Shown here: piece after piece, positions 4,344 to 59,880 of the stretch
Numbering within the stretch: the stretch's first letter is position 1
Layout of the letters: the number at the start of each line of letters is the position of its first letter
Assembly (NCBI GenBank): GCA_934122155.1
Contig: CAKOVX010000002.1
Coordinates: 1,437-65,436 of the forward strand
Direction of reading: 5' to 3'
Source of the DNA: an uncultured Clostridia bacterium
GTDB taxonomy: Bacteria > Bacillota > Clostridia > TANB77 > CAG-508
DNA length: 64,000 nt
Made by a program: the position numbers and the translations under genes
Notes under the pieces: model-generated
What the model was told of the DNA's origin: nothing
Database searches by the model: none
What the model saw: the letters and a program-made list of their open reading frames with translations, nothing else

Positions 4344-5804
4344 TTATAAATTTGGTTTATATTTGCTTCTAAAGTTTGTTGCTTGTTCATAAGTATATGC
4401 TGCATTTAATATAGTTTCTTCATCAAAATAATTTCCTATCAATTGCATTCCTATTGGCATATTATTGCTATCTACTCCACATGGAATTGAAATAGCAGGA
4501 ACTCCTGCAATATTTACAGGAACTGTACATATATCTGATAAATACATTTCCATAGGATTTGATGATTTAGTACCAATATCAAAAGCAACTATTGGTGAAG
4601 TAGGTGTTAATATCACATTATACTTTTCAAATGCTTTTTGAAATTCTTGTTTTACAAGTGTTCTAACTTGTTGAGCTTTTTTATAATATGCATCATAATA
4701 ACCTGAAGATAGCACATAAGTACCTAATATAATTCTTCTTTTTACTTCTGAGCCAAATCCTTCACTTCTTGAATTTTTGAATAATTCTTTTAGGTTTGTA
4801 TAATTTGGTGTACGGTATCCATAACGAATTCCATCAAATCTACCTAAGTTTGAGCTTGCTTCTGCTGGTGCAATTATATAATATGTTGCTAAAGCATAGT
4901 CAGCAATATCTAAGCTAAATTCTTCTATTTCTGCACCTAGTTCTTTATATTTTTCAATTGCTTCTTGTATTTTTGCTTTTACTTCTGAATTTATTCCTTC
5001 TCCAAAGTACTCTTTTGGAATTCCAATTTTTAAACCTTTAACATTATTCTTTAGGCATTTAGTATAGTCTTTTTTATCAGCTTCTGCTGAAGTTGTGTCT
5101 TTTTCGTCATGTCCACTAATTACATTTAATAAAAGTGCTGCATCTTTAACATCTTTAGTTATTGGACCTATTTGGTCAAGTGAAGATGCAAATGCTACTA
5201 GCCCATAACGAGATACCAACCCATAAGTTGGTTTAAGGCCTACCACTCCACAAAAGCTTGCTGGTTGACGAATTGAACCACCTGTGTCTGAGCCTAGTGC
5301 CCATGGTACCAAATTTGCCGCAACAGCTGCTGCACTTCCTCCTGATGAACCACCTGGTACTGTATTTAAGTTCCATGGATTTTTTGTTGGATGGAAATAT
5401 GAATACTCTGTTGATGATCCCATTGCAAATTCATCCATATTCAATTTTCCAAGCATTATCATATCTTCTGCATTTATTTTTTCCATAACTGTTGCATTAT
5501 ATGGTGAAACAAAATCTGCTAACATTTTAGAACCACATGTAGTTTTTATACCTTTAGTGCATATATTATCTTTTATTCCAATTGGAATACCGGCTATTTC
5601 TCCTACTTCTGATTTTTTGTCAATCTCTTCTGCCCTTTTGATAGCTTCATCTGTTAATGGTGTAATAAAAGCTTGTACATCTTTTTCTTTTTCATTTATT
5701 CTATCTACATAAGCTTTAGTAATTTCAGCAGATGTTAATTCTTTATTCTTTAATTTTTCTAAAAGCTCATGTACAGTTACTTCTGTAATATTCATTTTAT
5801 TCAT
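4344..5804 (-). CDS. gatA: Glu-tRNA(Gln) amidotransferase subunit A
   Basis: Amidase signature [12 protein letters not shown]; 486 aa. Confidence 0.97.
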
Positions 5805-19023: not shown

Positions 19024-20760
19024 ATGACTTTTAGTGAACAATTAAATAAATATTTAGAACAATTTTCTTGTTCTTCTCAAGAACTGGTAACTGCTTCTGG
19101 CTTATCTTCAACAGTTGTTAGCCGTTATCGCAAAGGAGATAGAACTCCAAGTATAAAAAGCACTCAACTTGAGCAATTAGTAAAAGGGCTATGTTCTATT
19201 GCAACTGACAGAAAAATTAATATCTCGCAAGATGAAATTTATAGTAGTTTGGCAAATACTTTAAATGATGTTTTTGTTGACTTTGAACAATTAAGTAAAA
19301 ATTTTAATGAAATAATTTCTGCTTTAAATATAAGTGTTGCTGATTTAGCTCGTTCTATTGGTTATGATGCTTCTTTTTTATCTAAAATTCGTACAGGAAA
19401 TAGAAGCCCAGCAAAGCCAAAGGATTTTATTGAATCTGTTTGTAAATTTATAGTAGCAAAGTATACATCTCAAGCTAATAAAGAAACTATTGCTTTGCTT
19501 ATTGGGTGTAAAATTGAAGATTTAAAAGATGCTAATTATTTAATTAAATTAGAAAGTTGGTTTTCTACTAATACCTCTACTAATTCTATTAGTAGCTTTT
19601 TAAAAAACTTAGATGAATTTGATTTGAATCAGTATATAAAAGCTATTCATTTTGATGAAATGAAGGTCCCTTTTGTACCTTTTTATAAATCTTCTTCTAA
19701 AAATTATTATGGTATAGAAGAAATGAAAAAAGGAGAATTAGACTTTTTTAAAGCTACTGTTTTTTCAAAATCTGATGAACCTGTTTTTATGTGTAGTGAT
19801 ATGCCTATGGAAGATATGGCTGAAGATATAGATTTTGGTAAAAAGTGGATGTTTGCTATTGCAATGACTTTAAAAAAGGGATTGCATTTGAATATTATTC
19901 ATAATTTAGATAGACCTTTTAATGAAATGATGTTAGGTTTAGAAAGTTGGATTCCTATTTATATGACAGGACAGGTTTCTCCTTATTTTCTAAAGGGTAC
20001 TCCAAATTCTATATATTGTCATTTTAATTATGTTTCAGGAGCTGCTGCTCTTACAGGAGAATGTATAAATGGATACCATAGCAAGGGAAAATATTATTTA
20101 ACTAGTTCTAAAAATGATATTGCTTATTACAAAGAAAAAGCTAAATGCTTACTTAGTAAGGCTACTCCTCTTATGGAAATTTATAGGTCAGAATCAAAAA
20201 ATGCCTTTTCTGTGTTTATGGCTTCAAGTACTAAAATCAATTGTCCTCGTAGAAGAATAGTGTCTTCATTACCAATTCACACTATATCTGAAGATTTACT
20301 TTTAAAAATTTTAGAACATAATAATATTTCTAAACAAGATGTTGAAAACATATTAAATGCTGTTAATGAACAAAAAAGGTTAATTACAGCTGTGTTAAAA
20401 GAAAATACTTTTGAAGATGAAATAACAGAACTTTCAAAAGAAGATTTTGAAGTATTACATCCTTCCCTTTCTCTTTCAGATAGTTTTTACGAAGGTAAAA
20501 TTTGCTATAATTATGATGAATATTTAGAGCATTTAGAATTGACAAAAAAATATGCAGATAAAATTAATAATTATATATTAAATACTAATTGTTACCATAC
20601 ATTTAAAAATATACAAATTTTATTCTGTGGAAATGAATGGGTAATGATTTCAAAGGCTAATAGTCCTTCTATTCATTTTGTAATTCATCATCCAAAATTA
20701 ATGGAAGCACTTAAAAATTTCATACCACCAGTTATAGAAAAAAGAGACAGTGACTTATAA
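19024..20760 (+). CDS. putative transcriptional regulator, tandem XRE-type HTH domains plus a large uncharacterised C-terminal domain
   Basis: Two HTH-like segments (SQELVTASGLSSTVVSRYRKGDRTPS and VADLARSIGYDASFLSKIRTGNRSP) followed by about 430 aa of unknown function. Confidence 0.6.
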   Translation: MTFSEQLNKYLEQFSCSSQELVTASGLSSTVVSRYRKGDRTPSIKSTQLEQLVKGLCSIATDRKINISQDEIYSSLANTLNDVFVDFEQLSKNFNEIISALNISVADLARSIGYDASFLSKIRTGNRSPAKPKDFIESVCKFIVAKYTSQANKETIALLIGCKIEDLKDANYLIKLESWFSTNTSTNSISSFLKNLDEFDLNQYIKAIHFDEMKVPFVPFYKSSSKNYYGIEEMKKGELDFFKATVFSKSDEPVFMCSDMPMEDMAEDIDFGKKWMFAIAMTLKKGLHLNIIHNLDRPFNEMMLGLESWIPIYMTGQVSPYFLKGTPNSIYCHFNYVSGAAALTGECINGYHSKGKYYLTSSKNDIAYYKEKAKCLLSKATPLMEIYRSESKNAFSVFMASSTKINCPRRRIVSSLPIHTISEDLLLKILEHNNISKQDVENILNAVNEQKRLITAVLKENTFEDEITELSKEDFEVLHPSLSLSDSFYEGKICYNYDEYLEHLELTKKYADKINNYILNTNCYHTFKNIQILFCGNEWVMISKANSPSIHFVIHHPKLMEALKNFIPPVIEKRDSDL

Positions 20761-20777
20761 AATGTCACTATCTTTTT

Positions 20778-21689
20778 TTATTTTACACATTCTTCTATTA
20801 ATTCAATTTTCTTTTCTAAGTTTGTATCAATCTTTGCCATTGTTCCAATTGGTATAACAGTTTTCTTATCTATATGACCAAAATTATTTGATTTTATTAT
20901 TGGAAAACTGTATTCTCCATCTAATGTATCTAACAAAATTTTTTCTATACTTACTGCCCCATCATAATTTCCTAGCCAAATTCCTTTTATTTTATCAAAT
21001 ACTCCATTTTGTTTCATATGATAAAAATAATTGCTAACTAATTCTGGTGGTGTTTCAACAAATAGCTCTTCTAAAAATAGTATTTTATCTGTAAAATCAA
21101 TACTATATTTTCCACATATCATTTCATTTACCAAGCTTAAATTACCACCTACTAAAATTCCCTTTGCTTTTCCTTCTTTAATTGTAACATATTCGTCATC
21201 TGCTTTTCCAAAGCTTAAACCACCTTCTACAAATCTTTTCATTACTTCTTCATAGCCATATTTAGTTTGCCATGAAGTTAATGCTTTAAATGTTGGGCCA
21301 TGAAAAGTTACTAATCCAGTTTTTGCATAAATTGCATTTAAAAGTGATGTTGAATCACTAAATCCACATATTATTTTAGGATGATATTTTATTGCATCAT
21401 AATCTAAATAATCAAATGTAGAATTTGAATTAAAACCTCCTGATATGCAAAATATAGCTTTAGTTTCGTCATCTTGAAACATATAATTTATATCTTCTGC
21501 TTTTTGTTTTGCTGTTGCCGAATATCCTAATTTATTAGTTATTGCATTTGGTGCAAATTTAATATTAAACCCTGAAATTTCCATAAGCATTATTGAATTA
21601 TTTATTGTTTCTAGATCTTCTTTTAATACAGGGCTTGATGGTGCTATTAAACCAATAGTATCACCTTTTTTTAACCTTTCAGGTATCAT
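20778..21689 (-). CDS. LD-carboxypeptidase (peptidase S66)
   Basis: GDTIGLIAPSSP...GFSDST...HGP family motifs. Confidence 0.85.
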   Translation of the reverse strand: MIPERLKKGDTIGLIAPSSPVLKEDLETINNSIMLMEISGFNIKFAPNAITNKLGYSATAKQKAEDINYMFQDDETKAIFCISGGFNSNSTFDYLDYDAIKYHPKIICGFSDSTSLLNAIYAKTGLVTFHGPTFKALTSWQTKYGYEEVMKRFVEGGLSFGKADDEYVTIKEGKAKGILVGGNLSLVNEMICGKYSIDFTDKILFLEELFVETPPELVSNYFYHMKQNGVFDKIKGIWLGNYDGAVSIEKILLDTLDGEYSFPIIKSNNFGHIDKKTVIPIGTMAKIDTNLEKKIELIEECVK

Positions 21690-21699
21690 ATTACTCCTC

Positions 21700-22509
21700 C
21701 TATTTTATTGCTATTATTGCCCCATTTACTCCAAAGCTTTTTCCATCTGCTCTATATGAATGAAACTCTTTTGAATGACACATTGTACAAATATTACTGT
21801 CTATTATATTTTCCGTTTTTAATCCTATATTTTTTAATGACTCTATGTTAATTTTTACTGTATCAATATAGTATTTCTGCTTTTCTTCTTTTTTGTCTCC
21901 TAGTTTAATTATTTCATCAATGTTTTTTAACTCTTTGTATTTATTATAAAATAAGTCTTTTACATCTTCATCAACTTCAAAACAACATTGTCTTATACTT
22001 GGACATATACAGCATATAATATTTTCTGGTTTACTCTGATATTCAGTTACCATCTTTTCTATTGCTTTTACTATTATTCCTTTTAAAGTACCTTTCCAAC
22101 CTGAATGAATACTCCCTATAGCTTTTTTTACTGGGTCATACAAAAGCATTGAAATGCAGTCTGCAGAAGTTGTAAGTAATGTAATATTTTTTTTATCAGT
22201 GACTATTCCATCAACATCCTTTAGTTCATCAGTTGTTTTTACTTCCTCGACTTTTTCTACTATATCTGTATGGGTTTGGTATGGCCTTACAATTTGTGCA
22301 TTTTTTAAATTTAAACTCTTTAATATTTTATCACAACTTTGCTTAAAAAAGTCACGATTTTTTATTTGAAAATTCAACTGGTTATTACTTCTCATTGTAT
22401 AACAATGTATTATTTCTGGATACTCTAACAATTTTCTAAACTGAATATATTCAATTCCATTTCTATTTTCATATACTATATTCTCCACTTGTAGTTTACT
22501 TCCTCCCAT
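21700..22509 (-). CDS. pgeF: peptidoglycan editing factor PgeF / YfiH (DUF152)
   Basis: TADC...HSGWKG...CTMC conserved His/Cys pattern. Confidence 0.85.
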   Translation of the reverse strand: MGGSKLQVENIVYENRNGIEYIQFRKLLEYPEIIHCYTMRSNNQLNFQIKNRDFFKQSCDKILKSLNLKNAQIVRPYQTHTDIVEKVEEVKTTDELKDVDGIVTDKKNITLLTTSADCISMLLYDPVKKAIGSIHSGWKGTLKGIIVKAIEKMVTEYQSKPENIICCICPSIRQCCFEVDEDVKDLFYNKYKELKNIDEIIKLGDKKEEKQKYYIDTVKINIESLKNIGLKTENIIDSNICTMCHSKEFHSYRADGKSFGVNGAIIAIK

Positions 22510-22521
22510 ATTAAGTTATTC

Positions 22522-22551
22522 TTGACAAATTTTAATCAATTGTTATATAAT
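22522..22551 (+). promoter_or_regulatory. near-consensus sigma-A promoter driving a short terminated RNA
   Basis: TTGACA, 17-18 nt, TATAAT. Confidence 0.55.
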
Positions 22552-22555
22552 AATA

Positions 22556-22643
22556 ATAGGAAATGAAAAACCACAAACGTGGTTTGCCATATAAAATGCA
22601 AAAAGCGCATCTACAACGGTCAAATTACAGATGCGTTTTTTTT
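22556..22643 (+). ncRNA. candidate small RNA of about 88 nt (putative type I antitoxin RNA)
   Basis: Promoter at 22522; internal hairpin aaaccacaaacgtggttt; terminator 22605..22643 shared with the convergent peptide gene. Confidence 0.35.
22605..22643. terminator. bidirectional terminator
   Basis: cgcatct/agatgcg stem flanked by A4 and T8. Confidence 0.6.
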
Positions 22644-22649
22644 ATTGGT

Positions 22650-22772
22650 TTATTTCTGTTTACTCAAAATTACAGCTAATACTATAATTAAGGCAAACGT
22701 AATGATAGTTACTCCAATTAAAGAATAATATAATATGTATATTGTTGCAATTAATGATTGTATTTCTACCAT
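22650..22772 (-). CDS. 40-aa hydrophobic peptide with lysine-rich C-terminus (candidate type I toxin)
   Basis: MVEIQSLIATIYILYYSLIGVTIITFALIIVLAVILSKQK; AAGGAGGTG RBS 6 nt upstream, which can pair with the upstream CCUCCU; not in the ORF track because it is under 60 aa. Confidence 0.5.
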   Translation of the reverse strand: MVEIQSLIATIYILYYSLIGVTIITFALIIVLAVILSKQK

Positions 22773-22857
22773 ACGCCTCACCTCCTTGTAGGAGGCAAAC
22801 CACATCTGTCTTTTTCATTTCCTATAATTATATAGTACAACATTTACTTATAAATGT

Positions 22858-25800
22858 CTAGCGAACACTTGAAATTTTTTCCAATACTTTTTCCTTATTA
22901 ACATTTGGTATGTAATTATAATTATTTTTTGTAGTTTGATTAAACTGACAAATCGCCTTATAACTACAATATTCGCAAGGTGTTTTCTTATCCCTAGTTC
23001 TATAATATGGTTCAATTCCAATATTTCCATTTAAAATTTCTTCTGAAATTTGTTTTATGATTTTTTTCATATAATTTTGTAAGTTTTCAAATTGTTTTCT
23101 ATTTAATGTATTTGGTTTGTCACTAACCTCTCCGTCTTTGCCTATATATGCTGGAACAATATTAGAACTACCAGATACTAAATTCGTGTCCATTTTTCTT
23201 ACAATATTACTATCTACAAGTATAAGCCCTTGCATTTTAAATTGTTTTCTTAGTTCTTCTGTAATTTCTTCATCAGTCATATTTGGATTTGCATTTAATA
23301 CTGGGTCTATTAAATTAAAATACAATGCGCCTGCTGGTGTTACTTCTTCATTTTCACAAGCAGCATCCAAATATGTTAATAATTGAAGTTGCAAACCTGC
23401 ATATACTTCATTTAAATTTATATTTTTTATTGATGATTTATAATCTATTATTCTAATATAATTTCCCTCTGCAGTTTTTGCAATATCTAGTCTATCAATT
23501 TTTCCAGTTATCTCAACTTTTTTACCATCTTTTAATTCATATATAATTGGCTCATATTGGCCACCTTGTTTAAATTCAAGTTCATGTCCTATTACTTCAA
23601 AGTCACTATATTTTAAACTATCTACAATATATTTCATAGATTTCGTAATTACTTTTTTTAGTCTTTGAGCTAATATTCTGTATTTTGGAATACTATTAAA
23701 TATATCATATTTTTTTAATGTTAGTTTTTCTTCAACAATATCTTCTGTAATTTGTTTTATTTGTTCTTCTTCAATATTTTTTACAGATATGTTTAATTCA
23801 TCTAATCTTTCGAAAAAGCTATCTATTACTTCATGCATTAAGTTTCCTGTATCAACAGCCTCAACATTAAAGCTATCTTTTTCTTTTAATTTTAGTCCGT
23901 ATTTTAAATAATATGAAAAAGCACAAGCTTGATATTGTTCTAGTCTTGACACACTTGTTTTTAAAGTATTGCCATATAATTTTTCCAATTTATTTTGCTT
24001 TAATTTTTCTGGCTCATTTTTATATTGTAAAGCTTTTATTGCTGACTCTAATTTTGTTTTATAATTAGCTTGATAATAATTGTATACATCGAACCAAATA
24101 GGTTCTATTTCCTCACCCTGTGTAAAATTTCTTAAATTTACTAATAATTCATCAAATGTAGTTTTAGAAAGTAATACTTCACTTTTTCTTTCTATTACAT
24201 CACTTTGTTCTTTTATATTAGGAAATATTCTTTTAATTTTATTTATTAATATTGACGCTCTTAAAGATTTTCCCTCTGCATCTGATGAAGCATAAGATAA
24301 ATAAAGTTTTTCTTCTGCTGTTGTAAATGCCTTGTAAATATTAAAATTGTCGTCATAAATTTGCTCTATTGTTCCTTTTGCAAGTTCTATTCCTTGCTCT
24401 TTTAATATATTTCTATCTTTATCGTCTAAAAATCCTTCATCTTTTTGTATACTTGGAAAGCTTCCATCATTTAAACCTATAATAAATACTGCCTTTACTT
24501 TATGTGATCTTGAACGGTCTACATCTCCTACTATTACTTGGTCTGCAGTTGCAGGAATTGTGCCTAAGTCACTTTGGTTAAATCCCATTTTTAATATTTT
24601 TGCATATCTATCAAAAGTTATATTTTTATTGCCTAAAACTAGTACTATTTCATCGAATAAATCGGTTAAAATTTTAATACTTAATTCATATTGTTTTGCA
24701 ATTTCTAGTTCATTATTTTGTTTCAATTCTTCAATTTTTTGTTCTAGCTTTTCATATATATTATTTTGGACTAAAAATTCATATAATCCAGTCGTTATTT
24801 CTTTTACTGTTTTTAATCCTGCTAACTGTTTTTTGAATTTCAAAAGAGGTTCTACAACTTTATCTCTTGCATATATTATTTGCTTTTGTTGCTCTTCTGT
24901 TTCATTGTAAAAGTTCCATTCTTTTGCATGCCATTTACTTCCTTTTATGCCCCATTTTAAGCAATAATTTTCTAATACTGCTATTTCTTGTGTATCTAAA
25001 TCTAGTAACCCTGTTTTTATATATCCAAAAACAGATTCATAAGACCAGTTCTTTGCAAATATTTCTAATAAAGATAATACATATCTTACTAAAATATTAC
25101 TTCCTAAGTCTTTTTTCTCATCTATAAAAACTGGTATATTATATTGCTCAAAAATTGCTTTGCATAAACTTGAATATGTTTCTATGTTTTTTGTAATTAC
25201 AGCCATTTCTTCATATTTGTAGCCTTTTTTTGCAAGTTTTGTTATTTGTATTGCAACATTTTCTATTTCAGAATATGGATTACTTGCCAAAAATATAGAT
25301 AAGTTTTCATTTTGTTTGTCATATTTTTTATAAAAAGGAGAGGCCATATCTTCTGCTAGATGTTGTAATTCTTCAGTTTTAAATCTATATGGTGTATTTA
25401 AAAAAATTGGTTTTTCTACTTCTATTTGCTCTTGGTTTGCAATTTCTAAAATCCTTTTTGCTGTTTGTTTATTACTATAAAATGTGTCTATATCAGCATT
25501 TGTATTTTCTTGTAAATTATCTGCACAAATTGTTATTGTAATTTTATGTGATATTCTCATAAGTTTTCTTAAAATTTCATATTCTTGCAAAGTGAAACCT
25601 GCAAATTCGTCAATATATATATCACAATTTTTAAATTCATTTGATTCTTCTAGCTCTTCTGCTAAAAGAGTTAACCCATCATTTTCGTCAATATATTGAT
25701 TTTGAATTGAAGTGTTATATAAATCATATAAATTTGTAATATCTTCAAGCTTTTTTTGTAGATATTTATCTTGAGTATTTTTAGTAACTTCTTTTAATGT

Positions 25801-26202
25801 ATCTAGCTGAACTTGATGTTTTTTTAGCTCAGTTAATTGTCTTGATATCATTTCTACATTTTCATCTGATTTGCCTAAAAATGAAAACTTATTGTTTTCC
25901 GTTAGTAAAATGTGGTCTATAAGCATTGCCTTGCCTGAACCTGATAAATTTATTCTTGTTTTTTTGCCTACTTCTCCTAAGATTCTATATGCCATACGTG
26001 CAAATGTAATTACTTCTGCTGAAATCATACTTTGTGAAGAAGATGTTTCAAGTAATTTTTGCTCTGCTGTATATGAAAATTGTTCTGGTGTAATTACTTT
26101 TATTTTGTATGGACTTTTTTGTTTTATTTGTTCATTTATTTGGTTAAAAATATATGTACTTTTTCCTGTACCTGATGTTCCATATACAATTTGAATACTC
26201 AA
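22858..26202 (-). CDS. addB: ATP-dependent helicase/deoxyribonuclease subunit B
   Basis: N-terminal GTSGTGKST P-loop; C-terminal PD-(D/E)XK nuclease with a CEYCSYKAIC Fe-S motif; 1114 aa. Confidence 0.9.
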   Translation of the reverse strand: MSIQIVYGTSGTGKSTYIFNQINEQIKQKSPYKIKVITPEQFSYTAEQKLLETSSSQSMISAEVITFARMAYRILGEVGKKTRINLSGSGKAMLIDHILLTENNKFSFLGKSDENVEMISRQLTELKKHQVQLDTLKEVTKNTQDKYLQKKLEDITNLYDLYNTSIQNQYIDENDGLTLLAEELEESNEFKNCDIYIDEFAGFTLQEYEILRKLMRISHKITITICADNLQENTNADIDTFYSNKQTAKRILEIANQEQIEVEKPIFLNTPYRFKTEELQHLAEDMASPFYKKYDKQNENLSIFLASNPYSEIENVAIQITKLAKKGYKYEEMAVITKNIETYSSLCKAIFEQYNIPVFIDEKKDLGSNILVRYVLSLLEIFAKNWSYESVFGYIKTGLLDLDTQEIAVLENYCLKWGIKGSKWHAKEWNFYNETEEQQKQIIYARDKVVEPLLKFKKQLAGLKTVKEITTGLYEFLVQNNIYEKLEQKIEELKQNNELEIAKQYELSIKILTDLFDEIVLVLGNKNITFDRYAKILKMGFNQSDLGTIPATADQVIVGDVDRSRSHKVKAVFIIGLNDGSFPSIQKDEGFLDDKDRNILKEQGIELAKGTIEQIYDDNFNIYKAFTTAEEKLYLSYASSDAEGKSLRASILINKIKRIFPNIKEQSDVIERKSEVLLSKTTFDELLVNLRNFTQGEEIEPIWFDVYNYYQANYKTKLESAIKALQYKNEPEKLKQNKLEKLYGNTLKTSVSRLEQYQACAFSYYLKYGLKLKEKDSFNVEAVDTGNLMHEVIDSFFERLDELNISVKNIEEEQIKQITEDIVEEKLTLKKYDIFNSIPKYRILAQRLKKVITKSMKYIVDSLKYSDFEVIGHELEFKQGGQYEPIIYELKDGKKVEITGKIDRLDIAKTAEGNYIRIIDYKSSIKNINLNEVYAGLQLQLLTYLDAACENEEVTPAGALYFNLIDPVLNANPNMTDEEITEELRKQFKMQGLILVDSNIVRKMDTNLVSGSSNIVPAYIGKDGEVSDKPNTLNRKQFENLQNYMKKIIKQISEEILNGNIGIEPYYRTRDKKTPCEYCSYKAICQFNQTTKNNYNYIPNVNKEKVLEKISSVR

Positions 26203-59697: not shown

Positions 59698-59880
59698 TAG
59701 TTTAGTTTTAGCGCCAGGACAGTTTTTATTTACTGTTGACGAGGTTAGAGCTTATCGAAAGACTCGGCGGATGGCTCTATGGCATGCGTTACTGTCATTA
59801 CATATTAGCAAAAAATTATAGTAATATAATATAACAAATCTAATATGAGTACGCTTTAATTTGTATACCTTACTTTAAGC
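59698..59880 (+). ncRNA. glmS ribozyme (GlcN6P-responsive self-cleaving riboswitch)
   Basis: Conserved core AGCGCCAGGAC...GACGAGG...UUAUCGAA...CGGCGGAUGGC immediately upstream of glmS; a TTGACA-17-TAATAT promoter lies at 59622..59650. Confidence 0.9.

Follow-up and report, generated by a model that had tools for sequence, protein, structure and literature searches.

In a 64,000-nt stretch of DNA from an uncultured Clostridia bacterium (contig CAKOVX010000002.1 of assembly GCA_934122155.1, positions 1,437 to 65,436; hereafter the window, with positions counted from its first nucleotide), we analysed a 350-bp intergenic unit that is flanked by the 3′ end of addB (22858..26202) on one side and by pgeF (21700..22509) on the other, both genes being on the minus strand. 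Judged by sequence comparison, this unit holds a compact and strongly selected module that consists of the mRNA of a 40-amino-acid (aa) membrane peptide and a small RNA predicted to be transcribed convergently to it. The module displays every sequence-level hallmark of a type I toxin-antitoxin (TA) pair, and its family appears from our searches to be undescribed and abundant in gut Clostridia. We consider it very likely that the two genes form a functional peptide-antisense pair, and probable that this pair is a chromosomal type I TA system. A type I TA-like architecture had been proposed in a preliminary description of the window. Our data support this proposal, as every architectural element was conserved as part of one unit.

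Predicted peptide mRNA and antisense RNA

The candidate toxin is encoded on the minus strand (22772..22650), where the preliminary description had placed a 40-aa open reading frame (ORF). We found the ORF at exactly these positions, with the product MVEIQSLIATIYILYYSLIGVTIITFALIIVLAVILSKQK. Residues 6-35 are uncharged, the tail reads SKQK, and AlphaFold predicted one helix (residues 2-39, pLDDT 95.5). Type I toxins are expected to be small (<60 aa), to have a transmembrane helix and to end in a polar or charged tail, as this peptide does. Homologues, all of them unnamed, formed 76 clusters at 68-93 % identity. They are 36-43 aa long and their indels comprise whole codons; the codon-position entropy was 20.6/9.1/23.2 among 49 distinct 40-codon ORFs. 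The entropy pattern and the whole-codon length variants indicate a translated hydrophobic helix, and on these comparative data we regard the ORF as a coding sequence under constraint for hydrophobicity.

Gene calls list a 51-aa extended form of the peptide, and the N-terminal extension MWFASxKEVRR is common among the homologue calls. This extension is the translated conserved leader, and its lone variable residue corresponds to the loop of the hairpin that occludes the ribosome-binding site (RBS). On the mRNA of the window, an ATG in the leader opens a 52-aa ORF (22660-22818, minus strand); in most relatives this ATG opens a 13-codon ORF that ends at a UGA within GGAGGUGA. The 51/52-aa extended ORFs and the upstream leader ORF were rejected as coding sequences, because their frames are broken by indels of 1-4 nt. 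Such indels, together with the lack of an RBS ahead of the ATG, suggest that the leader ORFs are probably not translated.

The predicted peptide mRNA is ~225 nt long and probably starts within the sequence ATAGG. At the -35 position of its promoter, TAGACA, TTGTTT and TTGATT line up across relatives; an alternative, overlapping promoter (TTTATA-16-TATAAT) lies at 22854..22827 on the minus strand. The stop codon TAG of addB (22860-22858) doubles as the beginning of the -35 hexamer TAGACA. The final addB codons (..GTGTTCGC) fall in the element GTTCGCTAGACA (22855-22870). This element is conserved ahead of modules at unrelated sites as well, e.g. downstream of spo0A, and addB thus seems to extend into module sequence at its 3′ end.

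The peptide ORF is preceded by the RBS AAGGAGGTG (22787..22779, minus strand). Its occlusion by an upstream anti-Shine-Dalgarno (anti-SD) sequence, as suggested earlier, was borne out by folding: UUUGCCUCCU and AGGAGGUGAG form a 10-bp helix with a 3-nt loop in the minimum-energy fold of the predicted mRNA. The variant-A 5′ untranslated region (5′UTR) was near-invariant at 54 loci; its stems were invariant and the loop alone varied or gained 3-4 nt. Among 112 distinct 5′UTRs, 9.0 nt of the 10-nt SD window were paired in peptide family 1 and 8.6 nt in a second family (family 2, see below), and this pairing dropped to 5.1-5.9 nt once the upstream leader was shuffled. Family 2 occludes the RBS with other sequences (GCCACC:GGUGG), in effect a co-variation between the families. 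An RBS hidden by an anti-SD sequence and/or by a 5′-3′ long-distance interaction, as in type I systems, is thus a feature of the module.

The plus-strand sigma-A promoter that had been located from 22522 onwards was confirmed, with 12 of 12 consensus positions and a spacer of 18 nt. We compared both promoters in 73 peptide-anchored modules, a set unbiased as to promoters. The small-RNA promoter matched the consensus at a mean of 11.5/12 positions and was perfect in 38 of the 73 modules, and the mRNA promoter had a mean of 9.1/12. This asymmetry fits an antitoxin RNA that is made in excess. Promoter and terminator of the 88-nt convergent RNA proposed before are both present in the sequence. The predicted RNA is composed of the single-stranded leader AUAGGAAAUGAAAAA, a 5′ hairpin (22568-22585) and the terminator followed by U8, and has a fold energy of -24 kcal/mol (z-score -4.2). 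With hairpin pairs counted on a supplied structure, both hairpins were kept in 89 % of the cells (71 relatives) with few compensatory changes, indicating that the sequence of the hairpins, not their shape alone, is constrained. RNAalifold gave only the 5′ hairpin on the small-RNA alignment, because the terminator loop aligns poorly. The leader ATG opens a 38-aa ORF on the small RNA (22563-22679, plus strand).

That both RNAs share one terminator had also been recognized correctly, and we found it canonical on the minus strand (a 12-pair stem at 22635..22606, then CUUUUU) and less so on the plus strand, where the stem encloses a 16-nt loop, too large for the consensus scan, and is followed by U8. 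The stem CACATCTGT/ACAGATGTG is nearly invariant among relatives. The two RNAs overlap by ~44 nt (~22600..22643) and are perfectly complementary there, so that the module holds, at the sequence level, an antisense RNA gene complementary to the putative toxin mRNA. Of the previous claim on this overlap, the complementarity of the 3′ ends stands and the inclusion of the peptide stop codon does not: the U-tract of the small RNA ends at 22643, and the stop codon (22650-22652), 7 nt past it, is thus outside the predicted small RNA.

Inverted copies of a 5′ leader repeat bracket the module, in agreement with the preliminary description. The arms at 22550-22570 and 22811-22831 are 95 % complementary and those at 22567-22588 and 22794-22815 are 82 % complementary; the 15-mer ATAGGAAATGAAAAA has exactly two copies in the 64 kb, both in the module. 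The common 5′ tail reads AUAGGAAAUGAGAAUA on the mRNA and AUAGGAAAUGGAGAAA on the small RNA. Each leader position was 82-100 % conserved in both RNAs of the 73 modules, and the tail is predicted to be single-stranded on both. Its spacing to the -10 element is unlike between the two promoters, which favours a role at the RNA level over that of a DNA operator. The identical tails may be a common site for an RNase or an RNA-binding protein.

Since the leader copies are inverted, the 5′ ends of the RNAs are identical and not complementary, and the likeness to fst/RNAII drawn earlier does not extend to the direct repeats of that system. Pairing energies between the 5′ domain of the small RNA and the 5′UTR or start codon of the mRNA were within the range of shuffled sequences, and cognate pairs had no advantage over non-cognate ones. 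We rejected a second pairing between the RNA 5′ regions, like that of par (fst/RNA II), for lack of support.

Conservation and genomic context of the module

A peptide-profile scan of species-representative genomes identified 140 loci, of which we examined the best 80. Peptide and leader, whose co-occurrence the preliminary description had left to be checked, were found together, as the complete module of ~270 bp was present at 70 of these 80 peptide-anchored loci. The hosts at all 80 loci are uncultured gut Clostridia, e.g. Clostridium sp. CAG:567, CAG:575 and CAG:354. Tandem arrays of two or three modules occurred at seven of the 80 loci, and 11 of 71 assemblies held 2-5 modules, counting retrieved DNA alone. 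In most of ~85 modules with a standard 5′UTR, ATAGGAAATG was located ~53 nt upstream of the start codon, with an inverted copy 263-283 nt downstream. In all, we collected 167 unique modules.

A metagenome scan for the small-RNA promoter and leader yielded at least 120 loci. Among the matches listed, 103 were analysable; 85 of these had a convergent hydrophobic ORF of ~27-43 aa, and the inverted leader was present in 88. The repeat is thus specifically linked to small hydrophobic ORFs and is not the generic intergenic repeat that the earlier proposal had been weighed against. An unrelated second peptide family is found on the same promoter-leader cassette, e.g. MVKVILFF..LYKNWVDKQLHK and MSFILFL..YIKYVNSIIDKE. 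At locus L012, which comes from a close relative, a second-family module (MSLILFLVIALMTSITINVALLTILYIKYVNMIIDKE; 5055-5337) follows an LD-carboxypeptidase gene, 2 kb from the module orthologous to that of the window. The window lacks this second-family module. Synteny between L012 and the window breaks there (corresponding positions 20760-20778), with no insertion scars and no clean boundary.

About a quarter of the genome loci are directly downstream of spo0A, and Spo0A is 70-80 % identical among those species. The spo0A-adjacent modules have the same orientation as that gene in L001-L009 and ~22 genome loci (e.g. L024, L034, L041 and L081), and in L001 a terminator is located between spo0A and the module. 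The addB-pgeF site of the window was common to L012, L020, L022 and L023 only. As pointed out before, no addA follows addB on the minus strand, where the module and pgeF fill the position (addA was not searched for elsewhere); the same arrangement of addB, module and pgeF, without addA there, is found at the four other loci. Among the genome loci compared, no conserved partner gene adjoined the module. Searches of phage and plasmid collections by blastn and tblastn found no module, and two IMG/VR scans gave one contig each. We rejected a phage or plasmid origin on the basis of this near-absence.

Predicted pairing of the 5′UTR box with the terminator arm

In the peptide mRNA, an invariant box of the 5′UTR, GCAGAUGUGG, and the 5′ arm of the terminator, CACAUCUGU, are complementary to each other; the box motif CAGATGT was invariant in 54 relatives. 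For the window, RNAduplex gave a box/arm duplex of -14.0 kcal/mol, a value reached by one of 500 shuffles. In nine representatives from four sequence classes (A-D, Table 1), the cognate duplexes had -14 to -20 kcal/mol and were matched by 0-3 of 500 shuffles. Pairs of box and arm from the same class had -16.4, versus -11.5 for cross-class pairs. With all 167 unique modules, the cognate mean was -13.7, versus -5.9 with shuffled 5′UTRs, and none of 300 partner permutations reached the cognate mean in family 1, in family 2 or in all modules together. When applied to 60 mRNAs, RNAalifold picked the long-range box/arm helix, stacked on the RBS-occluding hairpin.

The 5′ arm of the small-RNA terminator could in principle pair with the box in trans. 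The mRNA arm, however, paired better with the box than the matching small-RNA arm in 136 of the 167 modules, and we keep the pairing in trans as a secondary possibility only. We interpret the box/arm pairing as a fold-back within the mRNA. The pairing of box and terminator arm, which co-varies across the classes, is on this comparative evidence the new feature of the module. SD/anti-SD pairing, a terminator stem-loop and a 5′-3′ long-distance interaction are determinants of type I toxin mRNAs (PMC8594479), and all the determinants listed there are present in the module.

An insertion of ~60 nt in the 5′UTR, between the common leader and the box, is found in a few modules (L029, 494-625; L058, 2887-3018; L064, 2887-3018; L045, 212-353). 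In L029, L058 and L064 it holds an inverted repeat, possibly a hairpin, and the remaining 5′UTR is unchanged.

Table 1. Features of the module in the window, and box/arm pairs of the four sequence classes
Feature	Position	Strand	Basis or remarks
Small-RNA sigma-A promoter, TTGACA-18-TATAAT	22522..22551	+	12/12 consensus matches
Predicted 88-nt antisense RNA, candidate antitoxin	22556..22643	+	Promoter, fold, terminator
Bidirectional terminator and ~44-nt complementary region	22596..22643	both	Scan and fold
mRNA terminator 5′ arm, ACGCAUCUGU	22627..22636	-	Complementary to the 5′UTR box
40-codon ORF and stop codon	22650..22772	-	Candidate toxin, single-helix membrane peptide
RBS-occluding hairpin	22779..22799	-	Anti-SD UUUGCCUCCU (22799-22790), loop ACA, SD AGGAGGUGAG (22786-22777)
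5′UTR box, GACAGAUGUGG	22800..22810	-	Partner of the terminator 5′ arm
mRNA copy of the common 5′ leader, AUAGGAAAUGAAAAA	22811..22825	-	Exact inverted copy of 22556-22570
Peptide-mRNA promoter, TAGACA-17-TACTAT	22832..22860	-	9/12 consensus matches; placed by alignment with relatives
Class A box/arm			CAGAUGUG/CACAUCUG
Class B box/arm			UGUGGGUGCU/AGCACCACA
Class C box/arm			AUGUGUUG/CAACACAU
Class D box/arm			GCAGA..UGGUU/AACCAUUCUGC

No Pfam, NCBIfam, PADLOC or Rfam family covers the module, and literature searches with strings of the peptide and the leader found no paper. The Rfam search of the whole window gave nothing at gathering score for the module; at E up to 10, the best values in the region were 0.25-8.8. 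Elsewhere in the window, a glmS ribozyme/riboswitch is located at 59699-59857 on the plus strand (Rfam RF00234, 86 bits, E=2e-18).

Proposed mechanism, alternatives and relation to known systems

We propose the following mechanism. The moderately strong mRNA promoter would produce the ~225-nt mRNA for the 40-residue single-helix membrane peptide, and the near-consensus convergent promoter would produce the ~88-nt RNA, which would end at the terminator common to both. Folding and comparative data suggest that the anti-SD sequence in the leader pairs with the RBS and keeps the mRNA silent. The box upstream of the anti-SD sequence would pair with the 5′ arm of the terminator and thereby close the mRNA, as its co-variation indicates. 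This fold-back could act on the finished transcript, which would then be inert and stable, or while the mRNA is still being made, in competition with terminator formation. The small RNA, in excess, would pair with the terminator region of the mRNA. In bsrG/SR4 and txpA/RatA, RNase III cleaves the duplex of toxin and antitoxin RNA; here the duplex would probably be cleaved likewise, or the closed form would be locked. The peptide would remain unmade unless the small RNA was depleted. By analogy with known type I toxins, the peptide may harm the membrane when it is made.

Several observations weigh against a type I TA system. The C-terminal tail of the peptide is short and not always basic (SKQK, SKSE, CKSK, LSK), and the peptide matched no known toxin family in Pfam, NCBIfam or PADLOC, where it gave chance-level matches only; the second peptide family likewise gave only chance-level matches in these three. 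The 16-nt loop of the plus-strand terminator leaves the 3′ end of the small RNA uncertain. We found no support for a further pairing region that would connect the small RNA with the translation start, so that a block of translation by the 3′-end duplex is what we infer. Many type I systems of Firmicutes reside in prophages, whereas phages and plasmids are essentially devoid of the module.

Some of these observations would also fit a harmless peptide that, for example, modulates a membrane complex or is associated with sporulation and whose level is merely tuned by the convergent RNA, without any TA relation. The lack of homology to characterised toxins and the near-absence from phages and plasmids agree with such a role. 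So does the conserved site downstream of spo0A at about a quarter of the loci, in species with 70-80 % identical Spo0A, as it suggests long vertical retention over selfish mobility. However, multiple copies, tandem arrays and scattered sites are what type I toxin loci typically show and would be unusual in a dedicated accessory subunit, and no conserved partner gene lies beside the module. Moreover, silencing of the mRNA in two layers and a far stronger antisense promoter are expected for a harmful product. A harmless peptide therefore seems unlikely to us. It is far less probable still that the plus-strand transcript is an mRNA for the 38-aa ORF (22563..22679) or a small RNA with distant targets. 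An ATG is indeed located inside the leader, and the 5′ domain of the RNA is conserved without significant pairing to the peptide mRNA, which leaves room for other targets. Yet no RBS precedes this ATG and the reading frame shifts with indels in relatives, for which reasons we rejected the 38-aa ORF as coding, and the small-RNA gene always faces a small hydrophobic ORF, with which it has a common terminator.

The inverted repeats could also mark the termini of a miniature mobile element, or belong to a generic intergenic repeat, with ORF and small RNA being incidental. They flank a unit of ~270 bp that occurs at many genomic sites and in tandem. Conservation, however, runs past the repeats into both promoters, and the ORF shows coding-type substitutions and whole-codon indels. 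The repeat is found only twice in the 64 kb and is elsewhere accompanied by a convergent small ORF, and comparison with the close relative that has an extra module revealed neither a target-site duplication nor a clean insertion boundary. We regard this explanation as extremely improbable. A wider interpretation goes beyond the type I TA pair: the modules could form an unrecognised superfamily of antisense-controlled membrane-peptide genes that is defined by its RNA architecture, with a tail-reading factor and an antitoxin acting by strand mimicry. One cellular factor may then read both 5′ tails and thereby couple the degradation or binding of the toxin RNA to that of the antitoxin RNA. The 3′ arm of the small-RNA terminator is a copy of the 5′UTR box and may thus compete with it for the 5′ arm of the mRNA terminator, and this competition may switch the mRNA between the closed form and a cleavable or read-through form. 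We put this interpretation forward as a speculative one, with rather little confidence.

In architecture, the closest known system is par (fst/RNA II) of the Enterococcus faecalis plasmid pAD1, of the Fst/Ldr family. As in par, the promoters are convergent, a bidirectional intrinsic terminator provides complementary stem-loops, a 5′ stem-loop of the toxin mRNA hides the RBS, the peptide is a small transmembrane one, and chromosomal copies are located outside mobile elements (PMC7472228). In par, the direct repeats DRa and DRb make the RNA 5′ regions complementary, and their pairing covers the translation start (PMC7472228). In contrast, the repeats of the module are inverted and the pairing of the two 5′ regions is at chance level. 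The signature of Fst includes a Trp between helix and charged tail and a P/D/S/T-xxx-G motif (PMC7472228). The peptide and the homologue alignment have neither a Trp nor such a motif in register, and there is no Pfam match. Without direct repeats and Fst signature, the module is not a member of Fst/Ldr, and the DRa/DRb mechanism does not apply.

In their mode of working, bsrG/SR4 and txpA/RatA of Bacillus subtilis come closest to the module: their convergent antisense RNAs overlap the toxin mRNAs at the 3′ end only. Their toxins are hydrophobic, 38-59 aa long, with a polar or basic C-terminus, and the RBS is partly hidden. Their overlaps, however, are ~75-120 nt and extend past the terminator, whereas that of the module is ~44 nt and is essentially the terminator alone. 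Both are found in prophages or the skin element, and the module is not phage-associated. Sequence similarity to the two systems, which are in the family list of type I systems (PMC6563280), was not detected (TxpA and BsrG were checked through the Pfam and NCBIfam libraries). A conserved long-range 5′-3′ pairing in the toxin mRNA that accompanies silencing is a likeness to hok/Sok and aapA1/IsoA1 (PMC8594479). In those systems, a 3′ element or the fold-back itself hides the RBS, and 3′ trimming precedes the binding of the antitoxin to the 5′ region. In the module, by contrast, the local anti-SD sequence hides the RBS, and the 3′ partner is a terminator arm that is covered by the antisense RNA.

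A clostridial host and a cis-antisense RNA are shared with the modules of Clostridioides difficile, such as CD0956.2/RCd10 (PMC6563280). The C. difficile toxins are 34-59 aa long, with a transmembrane segment and a charged tail, and a small transmembrane peptide with a charged C-terminus is present in our module as well (PMC6563280). The C. difficile modules adjoin CRISPR arrays or lie in prophages, and most of them are reported to have Sigma-B-type promoters (PMC6563280). Unlike these, the module described here has two sigma-A-like promoters and is found near spo0A, addB and other genes. Toxin families are reported to be without mutual sequence homology (PMC6563280), and we found none.

The identical 5′ tails and the box/arm pairing could make the module a distinct variant of type I systems, if confirmed. 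The co-varying pairing of 5′UTR and terminator is open to direct testing by compensatory mutations, and if the peptides are toxic, they would be candidate counter-selection markers in genetically difficult organisms.

Type I TA systems are hard to detect, as their peptides and RNAs are short and diverge fast. To our knowledge, detailed study among Clostridia has been limited to the systems of C. difficile. The modules described here add a large family: species-representative genomes yielded 140 loci in a single scan, and metagenomes at least 120. The hosts are uncultured low-G+C Clostridia of the human and animal gut. The family has a recognisable DNA signature that could be used for annotation of the modules, and within it two unrelated peptide families share one regulatory cassette.

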